64,000 nt of DNA from Promethearchaeota archaeon. Its GTDB lineage: Archaea; Asgardarchaeota; Lokiarchaeia; Sigyniarchaeales; SOKP01. The notes under the pieces were generated by a model. That model saw only the letters and a list, made by a program, of their open reading frames with translations, did not search any database and was not told the origin of the DNA. Both the position numbers and the translations under genes were made by a program. Numbering within the stretch: the first letter of the stretch is position 1; each line of letters starts with the position of its first letter. The stretch is taken from contig RDOA01000012.1 in the NCBI GenBank assembly GCA_011364925.1, positions 1 through 64,000 on the forward strand. The letters run 5' to 3'. Shown here piece by piece: positions 17,075 to 30,157 of the stretch.

Positions 17075-18211
17075 CTATCTTAAGCTATATAATGGAAATT
17101 CAGTTCCATTTACTGCCGCTTGCACATATGGAGAGATTGGGCCTCGACCTAAAGCCATTATTCTTATCTTAGATCCTAATGATGGATTTAGGGAAGTCCC
17201 GAATTTAAGTGAAGCTTCTTCAGGAATTTCACTTGATATTGTTGAGATAATTCTATCAATTTTAGACAAAGATAATTGATGATCTCCCGAAACTGAAACA
17301 ATGCATTTGTCAACTTTCTTAGTGTCGGGTTCTAAGAGAGGATTATGCAGTGCCAATTTTGACTTTTTTATAAGATCAGCTTCTTCCCCTAGAGATTCAG
17401 TTATACCGATTAATCCTGAAGGTAAATCCCCCTTTTTTTCAAGAACTTTTCTTACATCAGCGTAATCAATGTTTATCAGACCACAGTTATTAATTAAGCC
17501 AATTATTTCTTTTATAGACCTAATTAAAACTTCGTCCATTACCTTAAACCCAGCTAAAATTGGCAATTTTTGGTTAAAACGAAGTAGATTATCGTTTGGA
17601 ATAGGTATTAAGGTATCAGAATATTTAATTAGTTCTTTTAAACCTTTACTTGCTCTTAATCTTCTTTCTGTTCCTTCGGATGTAAAGGGAACCGAACAGA
17701 AAGAAACAATGGTTGCCTTATTCTTTTTTGCTTCTCGGGCAATAACAGGTGCTGCCCCAGTACCAGTGCCTCCTCCCAAGCCAAATGTTAAAAACACAAC
17801 ATCAGCGTTTAACACTTGAGATAGGCGATCGACATCCTCCTCAGCTGCAGCATTACCAATACTAGGATCGTTTCCTGACCCTAAACCGTTACATGTTTCC
17901 TTTCCAATTAATAATTTTTGATTTGAGCTAGAATAATACAAATCATGTGCATCAGTATTGATATTTAGAGTTTCAACAAATTCTGAATCTATGTCCTGCA
18001 TTCGAGAAACAGTATTATTACCGGCTCCACCCACCCCAATGACTAACGATTTTATTTTTAAAACTTTCAATAAATCAGAAAGGTACGTATCATTATCTAA
18101 ATTCGAAGAATTATTAGAATTCACATTATGATGGGCAATTTCGTTAAATCTAGATCTTACCGATACTCGTGAGTTTACGATTTCGCTTATATCAAAGGTA
18201 TCTTCATCCAT
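17075..18211 (-). CDS. ftsZ: Cell division GTPase FtsZ
   Basis: GVGGAGNN, NTD, GLGSGNDP, GLGGGTGTGAAP, PFTSEG, T7 loop GLINIDYADV. Confidence 0.94.
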   Translation of the reverse strand: MDEDTFDISEIVNSRVSVRSRFNEIAHHNVNSNNSSNLDNDTYLSDLLKVLKIKSLVIGVGGAGNNTVSRMQDIDSEFVETLNINTDAHDLYYSSSNQKLLIGKETCNGLGSGNDPSIGNAAAEEDVDRLSQVLNADVVFLTFGLGGGTGTGAAPVIAREAKKNKATIVSFCSVPFTSEGTERRLRASKGLKELIKYSDTLIPIPNDNLLRFNQKLPILAGFKVMDEVLIRSIKEIIGLINNCGLINIDYADVRKVLEKKGDLPSGLIGITESLGEEADLIKKSKLALHNPLLEPDTKKVDKCIVSVSGDHQLSLSKIDRIISTISSEIPEEASLKFGTSLNPSLGSKIRIMALGRGPISPYVQAAVNGTEFPLYSLR

Positions 18212-18548
18212 AAAAAGTTATCTCTAAGAGGAATAATTAGTTAATAATATGTGTATTATATCCAAGTAATATAAGGAAGTAATATGCATGTAATATTAGG
18301 AAAACATGCGACAAACATCCTATTCAAATTTTCTTTGGTTTCATGATAATTTTTAAAAAGAAAAAATTTCAACACCTTTATTGTTAAAATTTTTAAAACT
18401 AAATATTCTAAAAATTTAGAGAAATAAGGAACTAATTACTCTTTTTATTCAACTTAGTTAAGTGTCCGTAAGTATAAAAATATAAAAAGCCGAGTGCAAA
18501 AATTTAAAAGACTGAAGACTATGTTATATATGCTCGGGGTTAACAATT

Positions 18549-18788
18549 ATGGAAATTGAAATGAATAACAACGCAACTGAAACTTCTTTCAATGATTCAG
18601 AAAGGGAGGATTTAATCAAAGTCAGAGCTATAATTAGTTGCCCTTCTGGAGATTATAAGAAAAAGTTTAGAAATGAATTTCCTAGAAAAGATCTGGAGCT
18701 CATGGTCGTTGCTTTCAAAATCTTTGATTTTATGACTTGTTCTAAATGTGGTGAACTCTTAAATCTTAACCTCGAATTTGAAATCTGA
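18549..18788 (+). CDS. Small putative Zn-ribbon protein
   Basis: CPSG...CSKCG. Confidence 0.55.
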   Translation: MEIEMNNNATETSFNDSEREDLIKVRAIISCPSGDYKKKFRNEFPRKDLELMVVAFKIFDFMTCSKCGELLNLNLEFEI

Positions 18789-18859
18789 TTTGTTTAATTA
18801 AGAGTTGGGTTAAATCTATATAAAAGTGAACATAACTCTTGTCCCAATCCTTAGAATAA

Positions 18860-20170
18860 CTAAATACTAAGTTTAATCTGCCCATAGGTTCCACCTCCCC
18901 CGGGAGTGTATTCTATTTTATCTTGCCTTATTGCTTCTATAACAAATCCAACTCTTTCGTCGTATTTTTTGATATCTTCAATTGGAACGTTTAATATAAT
19001 ATCAAATTCTGTTCCTAGTTTTTCAATTATATTATTATATGCGTTCATCACGGTTGTACTTGAAGCACTTTTAATATTTTTAACAGAACGAATGATATCT
19101 ATTAATGGTACAGCGTTTATATAAGACGGTCGATGTTCGGGGTGAATAGGCACTCTTGATGTAGAAATCACTTCAATTCTCTCACTTACTCCTAATTTAA
19201 TCTTAACATTTTTTGTAAATTTTTCCTTGCAAGCAGGACAGGTCATTCTTTCTTTAGCGACATTTTCGATATATTCTTGTTTAGATTTAATAGGATCGTT
19301 TGTAATGATTTTAATAAACTCGTCTGATATTGCGTATTGATTAAAAAGAGAATTGCCTTGTTTTGCAGTCTTTTTGAATAATATTCTTCTTCTACATTTA
19401 TTGCAGAACATATTGTAATATTTTCCTAACTTAGGGTGAAGTCCTACATTTAAATTAACTTTACGTCTACTTTTTCCCTCAATCGCTAAAACTACCTCTT
19501 CAAAAGAGGGATTTTCCATAGTAAGTCTGTTAAATTCTCTACCTAAGGATCTAGGACTTTCAGAATGAGCATCACTATTACTTAAGAATGTGATATGTTT
19601 AAGACAATCTAACCTATCTGCTAAATCTGTATTAGCGGATAATCCTAACTCTAAAAAGCTCACTTTTTTTGTAGCATCTTGATAACATTCTTCAAGTGTT
19701 TTGAATTTATTTTGACGAAATATAGCTTTAAATGGTGTAAAAGCGTGTGCGGGTCCAATAATCGCTCCATAATCGGTGATTATATCCACAAGCTCGGCCG
19801 GACTTAAGTTTACTCTTGGACGACCTCCCCATTCATCCAAGATATTTTTTGAATAAGAACTAATCTTTTTTTGAACATCTCTTACCGAAGAAAAATTGGG
19901 AAAGAAAACTACTTGATGAACGCTTTCTTGGTCTTCAATTTCAGTTTGTAAGATGAAATATACACCTTTATACGAAAGTGATCCGTCATTTTCCTTTATC
20001 AAGTTTTTTTCTAAATATTTTAACCAATTTGGTTGTAATACATCTCCGGTTCCAAGGATATCAAGTCCTTTTTTCTTACATGTTTCAACCATTGTATCTA
20101 AATTTAAATTTTTTGATACTGCTATTGAATGAGGAGAATGGATATGTAAATCAGAATTGAAAGACTCCAT
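18860..20170 (-). CDS. PHP-domain protein, endonuclease Q / TIGR00375-like
   Basis: DLHIHS, GTGD, GPAHAFTP, ELGLS, SNSDAHS, LGREFN, GKY, Zn finger, GGGGTYG. Confidence 0.88.
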   Translation of the reverse strand: MESFNSDLHIHSPHSIAVSKNLNLDTMVETCKKKGLDILGTGDVLQPNWLKYLEKNLIKENDGSLSYKGVYFILQTEIEDQESVHQVVFFPNFSSVRDVQKKISSYSKNILDEWGGRPRVNLSPAELVDIITDYGAIIGPAHAFTPFKAIFRQNKFKTLEECYQDATKKVSFLELGLSANTDLADRLDCLKHITFLSNSDAHSESPRSLGREFNRLTMENPSFEEVVLAIEGKSRRKVNLNVGLHPKLGKYYNMFCNKCRRRILFKKTAKQGNSLFNQYAISDEFIKIITNDPIKSKQEYIENVAKERMTCPACKEKFTKNVKIKLGVSERIEVISTSRVPIHPEHRPSYINAVPLIDIIRSVKNIKSASSTTVMNAYNNIIEKLGTEFDIILNVPIEDIKKYDERVGFVIEAIRQDKIEYTPGGGGTYGQIKLSI

Positions 20171-20194
20171 CAGTTCATCAAAAAATTCAATCCA

Positions 20195-21268
20195 TTAAAT
20201 ACCATTTGCTTTTAATTTAGACCCTAGCTCAATCCATTCTTTAGCTTTGTCAATATTTCCTAACTTCTCATGGCAACGCGCCGCTGATTCCCAAAAATCT
20301 ACTTCTGAAGGGTCGAGAGAAACAACTTTATCGAAGTGAATCAATGCTTTTTTATAATTATTTTTTACATCGCAATATATCTTCCCTAATTTCTTAAGAG
20401 CATTTATATTATCTGGATCCATTTTCAGAGTATTTTGATAATAAAAAATAGCCTTATCGTAATCATGTAACGCGTTATAACTGAATGCTAAATTTTCGTA
20501 TAGCACCGGATCTTCCTCTTGGAGTTTTAAGGCTTCCTTATAACAGTTTATTGATTTTTCATAGTCTTCTTTAAAGGTATAAGAAAGACCAAGATTATTC
20601 CAAGCTTCAATGAAGGTAGGGTCGATTTCTGTCGCTTTTTTATACGAATCAATAGCTAAATCGTAGTTGTTTGTCTCATACGCAACGTCTCCTAAATCAA
20701 ACCACAATTCAGCATTATTAGGGTCAAGATCGATGGCTTTTTTATAATACTTTATTGCTTCATCATAGTTCTGAGTATCGTAATATATTATGGCAAGATT
20801 GTTATGGAGAAGAAGCTCATCCGGATTAATCTTTAAAGCTTTTTTATAGCAATTTATAGCTTCTTCATACTGTTCCTTGTCTCTGTAGATTAAAGCAATA
20901 TTATTCCAAACATCTGTATAGCTTGGTTCGTATTCTAAGGCGATTTTGTAATATTTTAATGCATTATCATGATCTTCTAAATCTTCGTATGCAAATCCCA
21001 TGTTATAGTAAGCAACTGCATCATCAGGGTCTATTTCAATTGCTTTTTGATAGCATTTTATTGCTTCTTCATATTGGCGTAGCATGCTAAATGAGAGTCC
21101 AAGATTATTCCACACTTCTGAAAAATAGGGGTTGATTTCTATAGCCCTTTCATAAGCTTCTATTGCTTCCTCAAATGCGTTTTCATCGTAATACGCATCT
21201 GCTAAATTGATCCACGCATCAACATCATTAGGATCTAATTCTGCTGACTTTTTGTATCTCTCAATCAT
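20195..21268 (-). CDS. Tetratricopeptide repeat protein (about 10 TPRs)
   Basis: Repeated WNNLG...YEEAIKCYQKAIEIDP 34-residue units. Confidence 0.95.
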   Translation of the reverse strand: MIERYKKSAELDPNDVDAWINLADAYYDENAFEEAIEAYERAIEINPYFSEVWNNLGLSFSMLRQYEEAIKCYQKAIEIDPDDAVAYYNMGFAYEDLEDHDNALKYYKIALEYEPSYTDVWNNIALIYRDKEQYEEAINCYKKALKINPDELLLHNNLAIIYYDTQNYDEAIKYYKKAIDLDPNNAELWFDLGDVAYETNNYDLAIDSYKKATEIDPTFIEAWNNLGLSYTFKEDYEKSINCYKEALKLQEEDPVLYENLAFSYNALHDYDKAIFYYQNTLKMDPDNINALKKLGKIYCDVKNNYKKALIHFDKVVSLDPSEVDFWESAARCHEKLGNIDKAKEWIELGSKLKANGI

Positions 21269-21339
21269 TTTAAAATCAGATAATCTATAGAAAAATAAAG
21301 TTTGATTACTATTATTTTTTTTGGATTTTTAAAATATTT

Positions 21340-22386
21340 TTAATTACTAGCAATAACTATCATTTTATCATGAATTTGGTCTGTCAACAATATTCTCAGA
21401 TGGGGTTCATCAGTTTTAAATCTTACTTCTTCTAACTTACCCTCAACGAGTACAGACTCGCCTTCAATTGCCTGTTCACAAAACCTTCCTCGAAAAGAGC
21501 TAACTTCACTTATGTTATCTAATTTGATACTTTTTCCAATAATTTTGCTTTCTAGCACTTTTACACAGCTAATTTCATATGAACAGGGAGTAAAGATTGA
21601 ATTGGTTGAATCTATTAGATTTGCTTTTACTTTAATCCTTCCTAGATTTTTGAATTGATAATCGTAGTATGTTCCCTTCCAGTCATTAGGATCTTTTATA
21701 TACCTGATAAAGAAATCGATTCCATGGTATTTTCCTTGATGTAACTTCCTTTTTTCACTCTTTAAAAAACTCTCGAAACTAATGTTAGAACCTCCTACCC
21801 TCCATTTATAGTGGTCTTTATATTCAGATAAGTTGTAGGATCTACAATCGTTTGGAGTGAGAAGAATTTGTTTTAACTTATCTTGAAACTCTAAAATATT
21901 ATGAGTTCCATATATCATTATATCTATATCAGAATCAGCCAAACCCAATCCAATCATTGGTGATCCAGAAATTCCAATTGCATCTTCTGGTATTGATCCG
22001 TCTGTAATTAATAATTTACAAAGATTTCTGGAATGAAGCTCCAGTTTTGTTAATTCTTTTTTCAAATTAAGCAATTTATAATATTCTTTGGGAGTGTATA
22101 TTTTCTCTATATCTCCATTTTTTACGCCCTGAACTCTTAAATCAAGTTCCTTTGAAAAAAAAATAAATTGAGGGTATTTTTCTTCGAGTTTCAAATATCT
22201 TTCGTCCAATGAATAGATTTTTCTATATTTTCTGCCTTCCTTTATTCGTTCACCATTCTGATCGGGAACAAACCTTAAAAAACAAATTTTGCGATCTCGA
22301 GGATGGTGATAACCTTTTATATCAAAAAACAAATGGTCATCTTTGGTTTCGAGGTAATCCCCTTCAATTCCTTTTGGAATGTTCAT
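21340..22386 (-). CDS. Archaeal nucleotidyltransferase-domain protein (COG1665-like)
   Basis: GISGS...DSDIDIMIYG Pol-beta motif; N-terminal EGDY...HP; C-terminal OB-like GKLEEV. Confidence 0.8.
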   Translation of the reverse strand: MNIPKGIEGDYLETKDDHLFFDIKGYHHPRDRKICFLRFVPDQNGERIKEGRKYRKIYSLDERYLKLEEKYPQFIFFSKELDLRVQGVKNGDIEKIYTPKEYYKLLNLKKELTKLELHSRNLCKLLITDGSIPEDAIGISGSPMIGLGLADSDIDIMIYGTHNILEFQDKLKQILLTPNDCRSYNLSEYKDHYKWRVGGSNISFESFLKSEKRKLHQGKYHGIDFFIRYIKDPNDWKGTYYDYQFKNLGRIKVKANLIDSTNSIFTPCSYEISCVKVLESKIIGKSIKLDNISEVSSFRGRFCEQAIEGESVLVEGKLEEVRFKTDEPHLRILLTDQIHDKMIVIASN

Positions 22387-22406: not shown

Positions 22407-23510
22407 TTAATATTTTGAAGGTGTCTTCGATTTTATTTGATACTTGGGAATTTCTTTTATTTTTTGTAATTCTCTTTCAAACTCTTTTTTCTCTTTAAGA
22501 AATCTCTCCTTATCACTATCTAACTTTTGCCTTTCTTTTCTTATTGAAATCTTCTCATCTTCTATTTTTGATTTTTCTTTTTCTATATTTTTTATGTCAT
22601 CGTTTAATTTTTTCAATTTCTTTTCTGAATTCTGAATTTTATGTTCTAATGAATAATAAGCGTCTTCTGCTTGAGGCACCTTTCTGTCTAATTCTTTCAG
22701 TCGAGCTTCTTGCCCTTTTTTCTTACGTTCTAGTTCTCTAACATCATTATCAACATTTTCTTTAAATTTTCCTAGTTTTTCTTTCTTTTTCTCAATATCG
22801 CGGGCTTTAAGGTTCAAATTTTGTTTCTTGTATCGAACTTTTTCTTTTTCATCTTTTAACCTTCTTTTTTCATCTTCAATTCGATTTTTTTCATCTGTGA
22901 TTTCTCTTTTCAAATTATTAATTTCTTTGTTTAAATTATCCCGTTCTCTTGTTAAGTTTTTAACTTCGTTTCTTAAGTCCATTAAATTGTTTTCTAACTT
23001 TTCAATTGTTCTTTCTAATGCGTCTTCTCTCCGTTCCATTCCAGGTAATTTCGTTTTTATTTCTTTAATTCTTTCTTTTGCTTTTGCTTTTTCTTTTTCT
23101 ATATTTCTCTTTTCGTTCTCTAGTTCTTCCCTAATGCCATCTAACTTCTCTTGATATCGCTCTAAATCAGCAGTTTTCTGATCTAGCTCTCTCTCTTTCG
23201 CATGTAGTTCGTTTTTACTACTGTTTATTTCGTTTCTCATTCTATCTAATTCCAATTTTAAGTCCTCGTATTGCTTTTGAAGTTCTCTGACTTCAAGTTC
23301 TTTTTGTTTTCTTTTTTTTTCTAATTCTTCAATATTTTCGTTATATCCGTCAATTTTATTGATTACTCGCTCCCATTCATTCTTCTCCTTATTCAATTTA
23401 ATTCTTTCTTCTTTAATTTTTTTAAGAAGCTTCCCATCAACGCTTTTATCTAACTCTTCCTCAGGAGTTTTTTCTCGGATTTGATACTTTGGAATTGGTT
23501 TTTCCTTCAT
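22407..23510 (-). CDS. Long coiled-coil protein with the same motif at both termini
   Basis: About 330 aa of charged heptads; IPKYQIREKTP at the N-terminus and IPKYQIKSKTP at the C-terminus. Confidence 0.85.
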   Translation of the reverse strand: MKEKPIPKYQIREKTPEEELDKSVDGKLLKKIKEERIKLNKEKNEWERVINKIDGYNENIEELEKKRKQKELEVRELQKQYEDLKLELDRMRNEINSSKNELHAKERELDQKTADLERYQEKLDGIREELENEKRNIEKEKAKAKERIKEIKTKLPGMERREDALERTIEKLENNLMDLRNEVKNLTRERDNLNKEINNLKREITDEKNRIEDEKRRLKDEKEKVRYKKQNLNLKARDIEKKKEKLGKFKENVDNDVRELERKKKGQEARLKELDRKVPQAEDAYYSLEHKIQNSEKKLKKLNDDIKNIEKEKSKIEDEKISIRKERQKLDSDKERFLKEKKEFERELQKIKEIPKYQIKSKTPSKY

Positions 23511-23690
23511 GCCATTTCTTTAACTCATATTACCTAATATTATTAATATATTGATTCGAATTCTAAAGTGTTTGTAATTTCTTTTAAAGAGGATTTTTGA
23601 TTTAGTCAATTTTATTTAAATAGCTTAATTTCCATTATTTTCTTAAATATAATTTAAATGTACTTAATCTAAATTCATGGTGTTAATCTA

Positions 23691-24092
23691 ATGGATTTTG
23701 ACGAGGAATTTGATAAGGAGTTCGACGAAGAATTGGAGGAGGATTTTGACGAAAACTTAGATGAAGATTTTGACGAACCTACTTCAAAAACTCCTCCTGA
23801 CGATGTTAAAGTTAAGACTCCAGAACCTCATCTCCCTCCTGAAGGAAAAAAGATATCTGTATTTTTTCTTTCTACTATTGGTCCGGGAGAAAAAAAACAA
23901 AAATTACTAGTATATACTGGTAATAAAGTTGGAGACATTAAAGATACTGTGGCAAATTTGTTTGCGCTAGATCCATCCGATTTCCATTTGTCTTCAGGAG
24001 GAGTGACAATGGATGAGACATCTTACCTAAGCGATTATAATGTAGATGAAGGAGATGACATATTATTAATTCCTGCTAGCGTAGCAGGTTGA
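23691..24092 (+). CDS. Ubiquitin-like protein with acidic N-terminal extension, ending ...SVAG
   Basis: Beta-grasp pattern KVGDIK...FHLSSGGVTMDE...LSDYNVDEGDDILLI (compare ubiquitin [28 protein letters not shown]); free C-terminal Gly. Confidence 0.88.
   Translation: MDFDEEFDKEFDEELEEDFDENLDEDFDEPTSKTPPDDVKVKTPEPHLPPEGKKISVFFLSTIGPGEKKQKLLVYTGNKVGDIKDTVANLFALDPSDFHLSSGGVTMDETSYLSDYNVDEGDDILLIPASVAG
23694..23777 (+). repeat. In-frame degenerate 12-bp tandem repeat (7 units) encoding [D/E/N][F/L][D/E][E/K]
   Basis: gattttgacgag gaatttgataag gagttcgacgaa gaattggaggag gattttgacgaa aacttagatgaa gattttgacgaa. Confidence 0.8.
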
Positions 24093-24133
24093 GAACTAAG
24101 AAAGATATAAAAATCTTAAATTATTTTTTCATT

Positions 24134-24922
24134 CTATTTTTTTCTCGATGGTATTAACGCGATCTCGTCATCGTCGTCAATAGAATAATCCCTTATCTGC
24201 TTTGATTCGTCTAACAATATCCCACCGGTGGATAGGAGAAAATCTTCTAAAGCATAATCAAATAGAATTCCGACTTGTTCCTTGAGGATATTTACTAATT
24301 CTGAAGTTTCAATAACGATTATTTTGGTTTTCTCGCCAGGTTCGACTAATGATCTTACATAAACGCGAATCTTATCATCCATTCCAATAGTGGTCAGTGG
24401 TGGGTTGTACTGCACTTTTTCATTAGTTCTTTCCTTATATTGCAAGATATCTTTAATTAACCGTTTTCTTTCGCTAGGTTCAAAATATAGCATTTCTCTG
24501 ATAAAAAAGATTTTATCCATCTTTGATAACCCTAGCAAATCAATTTTGTCTAATTCTTCTCTATTGAACAATGTAAAAATGTAATCGTCGAAGGTCTCAA
24601 TTTTTTCAAAAGTTTCATCGCTATCTGCATATTGATCTACTAATGGCATAGCTTCGAAGTAATCTTCGATTAGTTCGCTTGTAGTTCTATGTATTGGATT
24701 TAACTTTTTAGCGTATTTATCTTTTTTTATCTTTTTAGCGGGACTACCCGTAGAAGATACAACGGTATAGATCGTGCCCGTTGACAATACCGCAACGCTC
24801 CCAACAGTTAGAAAGAGGAATAGAGGTAAACTTTCTATCTGCATTAAGAAAAAAATCAAATAGAGTATTGCAAAAACAATGTAAAGAGTTAAAATACTTA
24901 GAATTCTAAATTTTTTTTTCAT
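24134..24922 (-). CDS. Membrane-anchored (2 TM) protein with C-terminal non-conjugatable Ubl domain
   Basis: Two hydrophobic N-terminal segments; C-terminal PGEKTK...DFLLSTGGILLDESKQIRDYSIDDDDEIALIPSRKK is paralogous to the neighbouring Ubls. Confidence 0.85.
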   Translation of the reverse strand: MKKKFRILSILTLYIVFAILYLIFFLMQIESLPLFLFLTVGSVAVLSTGTIYTVVSSTGSPAKKIKKDKYAKKLNPIHRTTSELIEDYFEAMPLVDQYADSDETFEKIETFDDYIFTLFNREELDKIDLLGLSKMDKIFFIREMLYFEPSERKRLIKDILQYKERTNEKVQYNPPLTTIGMDDKIRVYVRSLVEPGEKTKIIVIETSELVNILKEQVGILFDYALEDFLLSTGGILLDESKQIRDYSIDDDDEIALIPSRKK

Positions 24923-25000
24923 GGTTTTTTGGCGAATCTATTCTCTAAATTTATGATTTAAATGGTATCTAATAAATCGCATTGGTATAACTTTGTAATT

Positions 25001-25675
25001 TTATATATCATAAGGAACTGATTTTCTAATATTCTCATATCTCTTGGAGTCTAATTTATATAAATCTCTTTTTTTATCTTTTTCAATTGATATTAATTTT
25101 AAATTCATTAAAATTTCAAGATATTTTTTAATTGTATTGTAATTACCTTTTAGGATAGAAGCTATTTCAGTAATTTTCAAAGAATTATCTTCACTCTTTA
25201 ATAGATTTATAATCTCACGAACGATTTCTTGCTTTAAATAATAATATATCTCGTCTAAATCTGGATCTGAATCGTAATCAAAAATAATTCTTTGATTCTC
25301 TATTTTCTTCGACCGTGTAAATCTGAACTTTTCTAAACATGATAAATGCCATAACGCTTGATTACTTCCAATATTTATTGCTTTCATTATTTCATTTACA
25401 TTGGATGGAGTCTTTCGGATATAATTATAAATTTCATTTCGGATTGGATGTTCAATAATGTTATTTTTCATTAATCTAGTTCCAGGGATTAGAATTCTTT
25501 TTTTAATAAGGTTTTTAATAAAGATTTCGATACTATTTCTGTTCAATTCAGGATTAGCTCTTACCCTATTATTGATGAACACCACGATATCTTCGACAGA
25601 AAAGAACGGTTTCTTTTTTAAATATTCCTCTATTAGACCACAGACAATAGATTGAAGGCTATCAGGCTTGCTCAT
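25001..25675 (-). CDS. Tandem winged-HTH (ArsR-like) regulator
   Basis: RNEIYNYIRKTP...WHLSCLEKF and KITEIASILKGNYNTIKKYLEILMNLKLI. Confidence 0.8.
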   Translation of the reverse strand: MSKPDSLQSIVCGLIEEYLKKKPFFSVEDIVVFINNRVRANPELNRNSIEIFIKNLIKKRILIPGTRLMKNNIIEHPIRNEIYNYIRKTPSNVNEIMKAINIGSNQALWHLSCLEKFRFTRSKKIENQRIIFDYDSDPDLDEIYYYLKQEIVREIINLLKSEDNSLKITEIASILKGNYNTIKKYLEILMNLKLISIEKDKKRDLYKLDSKRYENIRKSVPYDI

Positions 25676-25944
25676 AAGCTTATTGTTTTAATGTGTTGAA
25701 TTATACGATTTTTATAATCAAATCTTCTCTCTAAAAGGATATTTTTCAATTTATATATATTGATAAACAATCATTTAATTTATAAGTATATTAAACTAGG
25801 CATTTTAATCTTAATGAATACATTTTTTACATATAACTTAAAAATCTTCAAAATCATTCCAATCGGTTTTTTAACTCAATATTTTCACCATTAATATAAG
25901 TCTAAAAAAAAACTTAAACTAAAAAAACCAAGGAAGCGATTTGA

Positions 25945-26277
25945 ATGAGTTTTGAAGAAGATTTTGATGAGGAATTAGAACCAGTTAAATCTAAAACCCC
26001 ATCAAGTAAAACACCCTCAACAGGTAAGAAGTTGACTTTATATTTTATGTCAACTATTGGTCCTGGTGAAAAGAAGGAGAAGTTAACTGTCAATGATGCA
26101 AATCGGGTAAGTGATATTAAACAGACATTAGGAAATCTATTCGGTCTTGATCCAGATGAATTTCACTTATCATCTGGAGGTGTTACAATGGATGAGAATA
26201 GTCAATTAAAAGATTATAATGTCAATGACGGCGACGACATTCTTTTGATTCCAGCAAGTACTGCGGGATTAAATTAA
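25945..26277 (+). CDS. Ubiquitin-like protein with acidic N-tail and AG-LN pro-peptide end
   Basis: Close paralog of 23691..24092 (STIGPGEKK, FHLSSGGVTMDE, DYNV.DGDDILLIPAS.AG); directly upstream of the E1. Confidence 0.9.
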   Translation: MSFEEDFDEELEPVKSKTPSSKTPSTGKKLTLYFMSTIGPGEKKEKLTVNDANRVSDIKQTLGNLFGLDPDEFHLSSGGVTMDENSQLKDYNVNDGDDILLIPASTAGLN

Positions 26278-26356: not shown

Positions 26357-27592
26357 ATGGTGATAATATTGCATAAGGATTCAGATTTTTTTGCAAAGGG
26401 ATTGTCAGAAGAAGAGAGAGACTTATACGATCGTCAATTTCGTTTAGAAGGATGGTCCCAAAAATTAGTAAAAAAATCGAGAGTTTTAATCGCGGGAGTA
26501 GGAGGGTTAGGATGTGAAATTGCTAAGAATTTAGCTATGTTAGGGGTAGGCCATATAGATCTCGTGGATCTAGATATCATCGAACACTCTAACTTAAACC
26601 GCCAAGTTCTGTTTGCAGGCGCAAAGCTGGGAGAACCGAAAGCAATTGCGGCTGCAAAAAAGTTAGCTGAAATTAATCCTAATATTATTGTTAATGGATA
26701 CCATTCATCGTTAGAACGATTAGAGCCCTCTCTCTACTATAATGCTGATGTTGTTATAGGGGGACTTGATTCAATGAATGCGAGATTAAATTTAAACGCT
26801 CAATGTATTAGATTTAGGAAACCATTAGTAGATGGAGGGGTTTCTGGCTATTATGGACATGTATATACAATATTCCCATATCGGAATGCATGTTATGAAT
26901 GCAATCCGCTGCCAGATGTGGCAAGTGATGAAATGGCAGCTTGTACCGTAGTTGGTATCCCTCGAAAAAGAATTCATTGCGTTTTTAAAGGAGATATGGC
27001 CTTCAAAGAAAAATTTGATAGAGATCCGAATCCTAAAAATGTAGAAGAGATAAGGTTTATTCAAAAAGTTGCAAATGAACTTGTTACAAAACACAATTTC
27101 TTTCCTGAATATACAGAAGATGATATTGTAAAAATTATTGATCGCCATGATCCAGGAATTATAACAATAAACGCAACAATATCAGCTTTACAATCTCACG
27201 AAGCGATTAAAATCCTTCATTGGAAAAACGGTCATAAAGGATTAGGTGAACCAATTATAAATTATATGATATTTAATGCTATGACAATGAAATTATACCA
27301 CATTGAAAAGAAGAGAAATCCAGAATGTTCTCAATGTGGTAAAAATGTGAGACGCGTTGTAATTAAAATGAGAGAAAACTCTCCATGCATGAATATAATT
27401 AAAATATTACAAAAAAATGGATACAAATTAGAATCGGAATTTGAACCAGTATTAACTCTTTTGGATTTTAACGATATAATTGTTCTAGATTTAGAGCAAA
27501 ATCCAATTCAAAATGGTTTGAGGATTTACGAATTTCTCACGGTTGCGGGGTTTGAAGGAGGAGAAATATACGTAACCTTAAAATTTAAATAA
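26357..27592 (+). CDS. Ubl-activating enzyme E1 (ThiF fold, UBA2/UBA3-like)
   Basis: YDRQ, GVGGLG, SNLNRQ, Zn site CYEC...CSQC, catalytic-Cys motif ACT followed by PRKRIHC, C-terminal extension. Confidence 0.93.
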   Translation: MVIILHKDSDFFAKGLSEEERDLYDRQFRLEGWSQKLVKKSRVLIAGVGGLGCEIAKNLAMLGVGHIDLVDLDIIEHSNLNRQVLFAGAKLGEPKAIAAAKKLAEINPNIIVNGYHSSLERLEPSLYYNADVVIGGLDSMNARLNLNAQCIRFRKPLVDGGVSGYYGHVYTIFPYRNACYECNPLPDVASDEMAACTVVGIPRKRIHCVFKGDMAFKEKFDRDPNPKNVEEIRFIQKVANELVTKHNFFPEYTEDDIVKIIDRHDPGIITINATISALQSHEAIKILHWKNGHKGLGEPIINYMIFNAMTMKLYHIEKKRNPECSQCGKNVRRVVIKMRENSPCMNIIKILQKNGYKLESEFEPVLTLLDFNDIIVLDLEQNPIQNGLRIYEFLTVAGFEGGEIYVTLKFK

Positions 27593-27658: not shown

Positions 27659-28186
27659 ATGAGTATAAGAAGTAGTCGAGTCTCTCGAGATTTTGCGGGA
27701 CTTAAAAGATTGCTAAAGGAAGGTACCATCATCCAATTAAAGCCATTTAATCCAAAAAAAAAGAGTATTGATCACTTAGCTTTAACGGTTAAAGGTCCTA
27801 AAGGAACAGCTTACGCAGGAGGATTGTTCAGATTGGAAATGAAGTTTCCTGTTCAGTACCCTAAACAACCTCCTTTTGTGAGATTGCACACTCCTATTTG
27901 GCATCCAAATTTTTGGCCAAAACCTAATGAATATAAAGGACAAAGAAATATTTGCTTAGCGTTAGTAGATCCGTCTCTAGTGGGGACAAAAGGTGGATGG
28001 AGCCCTTCGAAAACAGCTGTTACAGTTGTTCAAGCAATCATTGCTATGCTCAACACGCGAGGTAAGTATGTCAATCCAACTGATGTGTTTAATAAAAAAG
28101 CAGCGATAGAAATGATAAAGGATCCTAAAATGTTTGAAAAGAAAGTGAAAAGCTTAACTAAGAAATACGCTAAGGATAAATGGTGA
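27659..28186 (+). CDS. Ubl-conjugating enzyme E2 (UBC fold)
   Basis: GPKGTAYAGGLF, FP.QYP..PP, WHPN, ICL catalytic Cys, WSPS. Confidence 0.95.
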   Translation: MSIRSSRVSRDFAGLKRLLKEGTIIQLKPFNPKKKSIDHLALTVKGPKGTAYAGGLFRLEMKFPVQYPKQPPFVRLHTPIWHPNFWPKPNEYKGQRNICLALVDPSLVGTKGGWSPSKTAVTVVQAIIAMLNTRGKYVNPTDVFNKKAAIEMIKDPKMFEKKVKSLTKKYAKDKW

Positions 28187-28193
28187 TTATGGA

Positions 28194-29003
28194 ATGGGCA
28201 TTGACGAAAATAATTCTAGTTCCATTAGAGATGCGATAAAACAGAGAATTAAAGAGAAAATTAAAAAAGAACTCCTCGAAGAAGTGTACACTGAATTACA
28301 ATTAGAAGAATTACAAGAAGAAATAACCGCTGAATTTATCGATGTAAAACCGATAAATCACTCTAAATATATCAAAGCTAACCTTGAACCAATTCCAATG
28401 GAACCCGTAGTAGAAACTGTGGCTAGAAGCGATAAAATTGAAGCGACTATAACAATCACGATAAAAGCAGTTCTTAAAATCGCCAGTCATTCTCTCAAAT
28501 ATGCGCATTCAAAAATACCTAGAGAACAATGGGTAGAAGTAATTGGCTTACTCGCTGGAAAGTATAATGAGTCTAACGGAATATTACATATTGAAGATGC
28601 TTATCCAATGGGGCATGGTACAGCGGTGTATGCTGAAATAAAGGATTATAAGAATTATGTTAGAGCTTTTAAAGATATCAAGAAAAAAAAGGGCTTATTC
28701 ATAGCAGGATGGTATCATAGCCACCCAAGTTATAGTTGCTTTATGTCAAGGGAAGATTTAAGCACACAGGCTAGATATCAAAAGCTTTGGGACAAAGCCG
28801 TTGCACTCGTAATCGATCCATTTTTAATTAACGGAAGATCAGTTGGATTTGAAATTTACCGCGCAAATTTTAAAACAAAGAAATGGTTTTCAGTGCCTTT
28901 TGAAATTAAAGGGCATTTAGATATTCGCATGTTACCGGAGATTATAGAATTCATGAATCCGATAATAGAAGGGAAACCAGCCTATTTAGAATATGATGAG
29001 TAA
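28194..29003 (+). CDS. JAMM/MPN+ metallo-isopeptidase (Rpn11/CSN5-like)
   Basis: EVIGLL, GWYHSHP-x5-S-x2-D, Q..YQ, AVALVIDP. Confidence 0.93.
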   Translation: MGIDENNSSSIRDAIKQRIKEKIKKELLEEVYTELQLEELQEEITAEFIDVKPINHSKYIKANLEPIPMEPVVETVARSDKIEATITITIKAVLKIASHSLKYAHSKIPREQWVEVIGLLAGKYNESNGILHIEDAYPMGHGTAVYAEIKDYKNYVRAFKDIKKKKGLFIAGWYHSHPSYSCFMSREDLSTQARYQKLWDKAVALVIDPFLINGRSVGFEIYRANFKTKKWFSVPFEIKGHLDIRMLPEIIEFMNPIIEGKPAYLEYDE

Positions 29004-29035: not shown

Positions 29036-30157
29036 ATGGTTAAAAATAAAACCTTAACAATCATTTTTGCTATTTTTTTAGTTATTGGGGTAATTCATGG
29101 TTTAATCTCTCTTTCTTTTTTAAATTTTGCAACCTGGGTTTTAATAGGATTATGGGTAATATTTACAATAAAATTATATGTAAACATAAAACGGCACCGT
29201 GAGTTTAATTCGCCACATAATACTGCATTTTTTGTCATTATTCCGTTAACTATTGGAATATTTTACTCAATTTGGGGCTATTATACAGGAATTCTAGGAG
29301 AAAATTTACTCGGTGGAGTATATTTTAGTCTATGGAGCTTAATTTTTGCTTTTCCTTTTGTGATCTATGGATCCTACTCATTATATCGATGTTTCAAGAA
29401 ATACAATGTAATATATTTTGGGACCAAAGCTGTGAAAGCCCGAAAATTGGGATACATTCTTTCTTTTTCAGTTCTTATTTTTATTTTGATTTATTGGATA
29501 AGTTTTTATAGCGCAATTGAGAGTTTTCCGTTGGATTTGAATCTCTTAATACTATTTATAGCTACAATTTTAGTCGTAATAATATTTGGTTTTACTAATT
29601 CTCGTCCATCATTACCTACTTTAACACGCGATTATATTGCAAATCGTACTAGAACAATAAACAATTTAACTACGCCTACAACACAACGACAGCGTTTACG
29701 GACTACAAGAGTAACCGCTCCTACTCCATCTACTAGAGCAACAACACAAACTTCAAGATCGAGAACTCATTCGTCAAGAATAACCCCTACATCACATAGA
29801 CAAACTACAAGAACTAAAACAACAAAAGTTACACACACAACTACTGTTAAACCTACTTCCAAAATTCGGAATATTAATAATTATAAACCCAGAGCATCGT
29901 ATTTGTCATTAGAAGATTTTAAGTGTATCTTTTGTTTTAAGCTACCAAAACTTCCTGATGACAAGGGTCGAGGAGTGGTTATATGTCCAAATTGCAGATA
30001 TCCCTCCCATGCGGATGAATTCAAAGATTGGATGCGCACTTCAAATCTTTGTTCGCGTTGTAGTGCTCCTATTCCTACCAGCTTTAGGCGTAATCCCAGT
30101 ATAGTAAGTGTAAAGAACTACATTATTGCTTATAAACAATTGTTAAAACGCAAATAA
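29036..30157 (+). CDS. Multi-pass membrane protein with Thr/Arg-rich linker and C-terminal RING-like domain; putative E3 ligase
   Basis: About 6 hydrophobic segments; CIFC...CPNCRYPSH...W...CSRC; last gene of the E1-E2-JAMM run. Confidence 0.78.
   Translation: MVKNKTLTIIFAIFLVIGVIHGLISLSFLNFATWVLIGLWVIFTIKLYVNIKRHREFNSPHNTAFFVIIPLTIGIFYSIWGYYTGILGENLLGGVYFSLWSLIFAFPFVIYGSYSLYRCFKKYNVIYFGTKAVKARKLGYILSFSVLIFILIYWISFYSAIESFPLDLNLLILFIATILVVIIFGFTNSRPSLPTLTRDYIANRTRTINNLTTPTTQRQRLRTTRVTAPTPSTRATTQTSRSRTHSSRITPTSHRQTTRTKTTKVTHTTTVKPTSKIRNINNYKPRASYLSLEDFKCIFCFKLPKLPDDKGRGVVICPNCRYPSHADEFKDWMRTSNLCSRCSAPIPTSFRRNPSIVSVKNYIIAYKQLLKRK

Follow-up and report, generated by a model that had tools for sequence, protein, structure and literature searches.

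Chains of the modifier SUMO branch from psi-K-x-E lysines of its N-terminal tail, K11 in SUMO-2/3 and K15 in Smt3 (PMC2727700), and the E2 enzyme Ubc9 reads psi-K-x-E directly, the +2 glutamate being contacted through K74, K76, S89 and T91 (10.64898/2026.09.10.750468). An archaeal operon type is also known in which ubiquitin, E1, E2, a small RING protein and an Rpn11-like JAMM are encoded together, and Hatano et al. described a discrete ubiquitin region in Lokiarchaeota; the accessible portions of the papers on these Caldiarchaeum and Asgard operons give no linear acceptor consensus, the sites named being lysines of the Rad50 coiled coil, K201 of Vps23 and K4, K53 and K68 of ubiquitin (PMC5654768, PMC9192718, 10.1101/2023.07.25.550441). 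Koestlbacher et al. reported 'Asgard Ufm1 homologues', noting termini that are long and disordered and hits that are partial or multi-domain, and the accessible part of their main text mentions neither a motif nor substrates (PMC12962969). Here we describe a locus within a stretch of 64,000 nucleotides from a Promethearchaeota archaeon (contig RDOA01000012.1, positions 1 to 64,000; hereafter the window), which carries the Lokiarchaeia form of a module of ubiquitin-like protein (Ubl), E1, E2, JAMM and membrane RING. The flexible tails of its Ubls and a linked coiled-coil (CC) protein share a short motif, psi-x-x-K-[T/I/V/L]-P. On balance it is probably a consensus for acceptor lysines, used both in building Ubl chains and in tagging co-encoded substrates at several sites. 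What sequence comparison does show is the motif itself, with its strict need for lysine, its concentration in the module and its inheritance together with the enzymes.

The likeness to SUMO lies in a flexible N-terminal tail that sits on a beta-grasp core and bears the same lysine motif as the candidate substrates, in the pairing of an upstream hydrophobic residue with a fixed residue at +2, and in the E2, where the aromatic W86 takes the place of Ubc9 Y87 and D143 lies near Ubc9 D127. Unlike in SUMO, psi stands at -3 and not at -1, the +2 residue is proline and not glutamate, the Ubl ends in a single glycine (STAG) and not in di-glycine, and the locus has a single E1 gene along with a JAMM and a membrane RING. 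The Ubc9 +2 pocket formed by K74, K76, S89 and T91 is not kept; when the E2 is set against the verified Ubc9 segment 68-134 from the PDB, F73 stands for K74, R75 for K76 and N97 for T91, and a nine-residue stretch with E91-Y92 and R96 replaces S89-G90. All 60 Ubl members compared match PF00240, and the Ubl fold gives Z scores of 12-14 to ubiquitin, ISG15 and SUMO, with the core nearest to ubiquitin/ISG15. The system would work like SUMO but is not SUMO: consensus, C-terminus and E2 pocket all differ. With the operons of Caldiarchaeum subterraneum and Asgard archaea the locus shares the co-encoded Ubl, E1, E2, RING and JAMM, with catalytic motifs intact here, whereas the modifiers of those operons are di-glycine proteins and their RING is small and soluble, with eight Cys/His ligands, in place of the STAG end and the 373-aa membrane RING-like protein found here.

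UFM1 ends in a single glycine, and UFC1-type E2s are not known to have the HPN motif. The Ubl resembles UFM1 in its single C-terminal glycine, in an IP-x4-G spacing and in a patchy, Asgard-wide distribution; unlike in the UFM1 system, the E2 is of the canonical HPN type and the E1 is UBA1/2/3-like, and they are not of the UFC1 and UBA5 types. Pfam Ufm1 (PF03671) is not among the matches listed for the 60 Ubl members (25 of 28 families) and has no match in five genomes including that of the window, with the limit that this is a sequence profile and remote structural homology may escape it; nor is UFM1 among the 50 best fold matches of the Ubl, an absence that excludes nothing. The published Asgard Ufm1 family may or may not be the Ubl family described here.

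Three proteins of the window carry the motif, as follows.

22407..23510, minus strand: CC protein, 367 aa, with an internal duplication of ~123 residues and four motif copies
23463..23480, minus strand: CC motif copy 1, IREKTP (K14), N-terminal
23043..23060, minus strand: CC motif copy 2, IKTKLP (K154), at an interior proline break
22674..22691, minus strand: CC motif copy 3, LDRKVP (K277), interior, 123 residues past copy 2
22419..22436, minus strand: CC motif copy 4, IKSKTP (K362), C-terminal
23691..24092, plus strand: Ubl-1, 133 aa, acidic tail with motifs at K33 and K42, beta-grasp core, end ASVAG-stop
23778-23795 and 23805-23822, plus strand: Ubl-1 motifs PTSKTP and VKVKTP
25945..26277, plus strand: Ubl-2, 110 aa, acidic disordered tail with motifs at K17 and K22, beta-grasp core, end ASTAG plus LN
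25984-26001 and 25999-26016, plus strand: Ubl-2 motifs VKSKTP and PSSKTP

The earlier note on this DNA had claimed six such peptides, all of which we located in the proteins it stated, and had counted two in each protein; the CC protein has four, IKTKLP (K154) and LDRKVP (K277) having been missed. These inner copies sit at proline breaks of the coiled coil, 123 residues apart in the internal duplication, and lie outside long disordered regions, so the further claim that every copy is in a disordered region fails for them and holds for the Ubl-2 tail, the one tail on which disorder was assessed. In the AlphaFold model of Ubl-2, residues 1-20 have a pLDDT of about 48-50 and the core 86-90, with no fold-back of the tail onto the core.

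The conserved core, judged from alignments, is psi-x-x-K-[T/I/V/L]-P, with psi being I, V, L or M, or proline in tandem copies. The consensus first proposed was psi-K-x-K-T-P; of its two lysines the latter is invariant, with psi at -3 and proline at +2. Only 81 of 200 distinct free-Ubl tails match [IV][KR]xKTP, and the residue after psi is variable (K in 96 of 191 sites, otherwise E, A, Q, T, S or R); a direct parallel to psi-K-x-E also fell away, psi-K-x-E/D being present in just 2 of 179 Ubl tails. What stands of the proposed acceptor or docking consensus is a conserved linear motif with an invariant lysine, found in the modifier tails and in a linked non-enzyme protein, and its conservation in ortholog alignments is upheld for both the Ubl tails and the CC protein. 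K-x-P is present in 198 of the 200 free-Ubl tails, twice or more in 177, and the tails hold 353 copies against 61±7 in shuffles, whereas only 2 of 965 lysines of the Ubl core stand in K-x-P. Among 60 diverse Ubl-2 members, with identity down to 50%, K17, P19, A107 and G108 are invariant. In 79 of 81 CC orthologs K-x-P lies within the first 45 aa, the two exceptions being N-truncated calls; the ends of these 81 proteins hold 109 copies against 60±7 and 133 against 49±7 in shuffles, and in their interior 157 of 168 prolines stand in K-x-P (shuffle 30±5; proteome background 7%). At the CC C-terminus an alignment of 46 tails shows K362 and P364 without exception and I359 in at least 90%.

KTP alone is at background among the 3,588 predicted proteins of the genome (194 against 172 expected), but the proteome-wide scan with [IV][KR]xKTP puts four of its only seven matches in the three locus proteins, more than chance would give. 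KSKTPS occurs twice in the proteome, both times in locus proteins, with 0.06 expected. The [IV][KR]xKTP pattern was picked post hoc, and the orthologs therefore serve as an independent test; by density of the refined motif CC, Ubl-1 and Ubl-2 of the window are the top three of the 3,588 proteins, a ranking that shows privacy and not significance because the pattern was derived from these same families. Synonymous codons differ between the hexamers common to the locus proteins, so the motif is conserved at the protein level and is not a DNA repeat, and a DNA repeat or gene conversion as its origin in the window is ruled out.

The motif lysine behaves as though chemically required. The 81 CC orthologs contain 396 K-x-P and no R-x-P, and R-x-P is zero in each of nine lineage groups, in proteins where arginine is plentiful (interior K:R 4482:2565) and is tolerated at -1 and -2. 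As a control, an identical hexamer in an unlinked membrane protein has arginine in place of that lysine in 5 of 17 orthologs.

Within the module the motif is practically absent from the E1, JAMM, RING protein, membrane-anchored Ubl paralog (TM-Ubl) and winged-helix protein (wHTH; 0 of 83), and it recurs in unrelated linked families, namely CC, disordered K/P-rich proteins and a tandem RHH-like protein. Loci of the Heimdallarchaeia type have a disordered protein of 170-290 aa in the place of CC, with 5-16 K-x-P repeats massed at both ends (50 against 23 and 52 against 20 in shuffles at the termini; 43 against 36±5, unenriched, in the middle portion) and KIP as the most frequent form. In the tandem RHH/VapB-like neighbour all 11 sequences carry I-x-x-K-[T/I/L/N]-P in the linker; its gene (L204:12041-12421 and orthologs) is divergent from Ubl in Hodarchaeales, and the protein might repress the operon under Ubl control. 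The CC protein itself is a candidate multi-site substrate or scaffold, for which the ESM Atlas holds no informative match (best 0.79). A profile scan of the window genome for further substrates gave isolated single matches only, and the one tested against its orthologs, C3:4038, was rejected, its lysine not being retained. Between the RING and K-x-P-repeat genes of Heimdallarchaeia-type loci lies an unannotated membrane protein of ~195 aa with no Pfam match (L205:10306-10890 and orthologs).

One module-negative genome, a single contig of 4,361,485 bp (G032), retains a deletion scar at L262:10113-10342, where the decayed end of the CC gene, with two motif copies still legible, abuts a decayed RING C-terminus on the opposite strand; the whole module between the two ends is gone, and CC was lost along with it. 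A tandem-motif match in this genome was therefore rejected as an instance of the motif outside the system, being the scar of the same locus. Coiled-coil matches in other module-negative genomes belong to different, motif-free families.

The remaining genes of the locus are the following.

26357..27592, plus strand: E1, ThiF family
27659..28186, plus strand: E2, with HPN and C99, candidate motif reader
28194..29003, plus strand: JAMM metallo-isopeptidase, catalytic motif intact
29036..30157, plus strand: multi-pass membrane protein of 373 aa with a C-terminal RING-like domain, candidate E3
24134..24922, minus strand: TM-Ubl, lacking the terminal glycine and the motif
25001..25675, minus strand: wHTH protein, a neighbour at family level only

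The E1 catalytic cysteine motif is kept in 126 of 126 sequences and the JAMM catalytic motif is intact in 113 of 113; the best E1 matches are nearly equal (SAE2 130, UBA1 130 and UBA3 117 bits). The RING-like domain has glutamate in place of one zinc ligand in 100 of 103 orthologs, has no Pfam RING match, and follows several membrane helices and a linker rich in Thr and Arg. No TM-Ubl ortholog ends in glycine, and 80 of them yield three loose motif matches. In the E2, H82-P83-N84 and C99 are invariant, position 73 is F or Y in 229 of 230 sequences, and a conserved insertion by the active site reads W86-P-x-P-x-E91-Y92-x-G-x-R96. The best matches of the E2 tie among several ubiquitin E2s and are not preferentially Ubc9-like; Ubc9 is not among its 36 best sequence or 50 best fold matches, an absence that excludes nothing. 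The E2 probably reads the motif, and its aromatics in the region of the Ubc9 +2 pocket could pack a proline. In complex prediction the E2 with CC residues 332-367 scored 0.43 against 0.02 for the best control, with runs agreeing in 78% of contacts and a partner pLDDT of at least 62, which places it in the weak class; among solved pairs 58 of 80 attained the mark for a complex, as did 2 of 110 mismatched pairs, and those that attained it with a score of 0.60 or less are just 7 of the 80 and both mismatches. The TPR protein nearby, put forward earlier as another possible partner of the peptide, does not qualify as a reader, since the neighbouring genus and all distant lineages examined carry the module without it; a nucleotidyltransferase neighbour was rejected in that role, as it is not conserved with the module.

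Given these intact catalytic motifs, the E1 would activate the Ubl, with its mature end ...STAG, and hand it to Cys99 of the E2. Aided by the membrane RING, the E2 would then place the motif lysine by way of the hydrophobic residue at -3 and the proline at +2, so that isopeptide bonds form on motif lysines of the Ubl's own flexible tail to give chains, which may branch because most tails carry two sites. Bonds would also form on co-encoded substrates, here the four-site CC rod and in Heimdallarchaeia the disordered K-x-P-repeat protein and the tandem RHH-like protein. Tagging would probably take place near the membrane, through the RING, and the JAMM would reverse it.

Several points weigh against such an acceptor consensus. 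RING systems usually lack a strict acceptor consensus. The lysine is less strict in the disordered partners, with 10 R-x-P and 146 K-x-P, and the counts overstate independence, being drawn from kin sequences, even though R-x-P is zero in all nine lineage groups. The passing E2 and CC-tail prediction is of the weak class and comes without contacts, hence without placement of a lysine, and an aromatic residue at position 73 and an insertion after HPN are not motif-specific because a sister Asgard E2 family also has both, its insertion being a different one. In two Heimdallarchaeia the second Ubl paralog is without the motif lysine, with RVP and NVP in its place (L221:5324-5680, in Heimdallarchaeota LC_3; L223:5379-5732). 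SUMO1 acts as a chain cap, and by analogy such a lysine-less paralog would be a candidate cap. Finally, in the accessible text on the C. subterraneum cascade a non-native Rad50 was modified at four lysines (PMC5654768).

The motif might instead be a lysine-specific docking peptide that binds the E2, RING, JAMM or another module protein without covalent attachment, the tails and the multivalent partner recruiting one enzyme or competing for it, while any conjugation would fall elsewhere. Repeats spaced 5-9 residues apart suit avidity, the weak prediction with the E2 fits docking equally well as catalysis, and certain binding pockets do take lysine and not arginine. Basic docking positions usually accept arginine, however, which is found here in 0 of 396 sites, though the adjacent positions and the out-of-locus copy accept it, and the presence of a site in the modifier's own tail parallels the chain sites of SUMO; we regard docking as the unlikely reading, though one to be taken seriously. 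Methylation or acetylation of the lysine by an enzyme encoded elsewhere, regulating the module, is improbable: a strict lysine in a fixed context would suit any lysine-modifying enzyme, but the loci read contain none that accompanies the module, E1, E2 and RING being their only conserved lysine-modifying machinery, and the motif clusters in the module and is not spread over the proteome.

The T-P pair had also been suggested as a proline-directed phosphorylation switch. Threonine is strongly preferred before proline in the terminal copies (166 of 174 in Ubl tails; 87 of 100 and 110 of 127 at the two CC ends), and a secondary regulatory role there is conceivable. The interior CC copies, by contrast, have I, V or L in 151 of 152 cases and never threonine; serine, the exchange expected at a phosphosite, occurs once in ~400 terminal sites, where V or I replaces threonine more often; KIP is the main form in the disordered partners; and the module has no recognised kinase. 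With no interior threonine and hardly any exchange for serine, threonine is better read as a steric preference than as a phosphosite, and a switch as the essential feature is very improbable. We give as little credence to a coincidence of composition and structure, with K/P-rich ends, helix-breaking prolines and spread by local duplication. Lysine is abundant in these proteins, the interior CC copies are part of one 123-residue duplication, and the middle of the disordered partners shows no enrichment; against this, the counts far exceed those of composition-preserving shuffles, codons differ between the shared hexamers, and the motif also occurs where lysine is scarce, in the acidic Ubl tails, as well as in unrelated folds, and does so in classes that share 55-60% identity in their E2s. 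Conservation has already largely refuted coincidence.

Relatives of the window genome belong to Promethearchaeia/Lokiarchaeia, and of the 153 genomes of that class 131 encode the Ubl; by profile search it is found in several further families of the phylum and is absent from others (0 of 55 in one family). Among the named carriers are Helarchaeota, Sigynarchaeum, Borrarchaeum, Hodarchaeales, Heimdallarchaeota LC_3 and the cultured Ca. Lokiarchaeum ossiferum, and the CC gene is divergent from the Ubl gene in Lokiarchaeia, Helarchaeales and Borrarchaeum-like genomes. The window genome encodes elsewhere a tail-less Ubl ending AGG (C22:12682-12933) and a second E2 of the sister family (C41:1-498), which also occurs in genomes without the module, and the module is for this reason taken as a separate pathway. 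Positions 17075-22386 of the window hold an FtsZ/tubulin-like gene, a small Zn-binding protein, a PHP hydrolase, the TPR protein and the nucleotidyltransferase-like gene; these flank the module in its own and the next genus, TPR in its own genus only. Many relatives have extra solitary Ubl-2 copies outside the operon that keep the motif tail (L096:10424, L097:10163, L099:1752, L100:6483). C-terminal Ubl fusions to HerA/FtsK-type ATPase, CDC48-N-like plus VWA, Zn-ribbon-like and other domains were also seen (L201:1910-3718, L203:13072-14814, L083:9691-11448, L195:12703-14658, L185:8557-9237); several retain the motif in a linker and many still end STAG, for which reason they could be conjugatable cargo.

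Asgard archaea are the closest relatives of eukaryotes, and Hodarchaeales are their proposed sister group. Substrate and lysine choice of archaeal Ubl systems is largely open, reconstitutions having been done with a foreign substrate or with an ESCRT protein, and our literature searches, with subscription papers outside their scope, found neither a description of this motif nor any reported acceptor consensus for such systems. In several Asgard classes, Hodarchaeales included, the motif points to particular lysines of particular co-encoded proteins, and because cultured Ca. Lokiarchaeum ossiferum holds all the genes (E2 NEF87_002994, Ubl NEF87_002996), the prediction is testable in vitro and in existing proteomes. 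A more speculative extension, which we put forward tentatively, is that Asgard archaea, Hodarchaeales included, have a second Ubl pathway whose linear acceptor code is read by the E2 itself, with branched chains on a membrane-proximal rod and possibly covalent loading of Ubl-fused cargo (HerA-type ATPase, VWA and Zn-ribbon proteins ending STAG), a SUMO-like logic in a prokaryote that might be convergent or ancestral. If the acceptor consensus is true, consensus-directed conjugation and tail-linked chains, hitherto hallmarks of SUMO, would exist in a prokaryote, with a targeting logic like that of SUMO and a different code.

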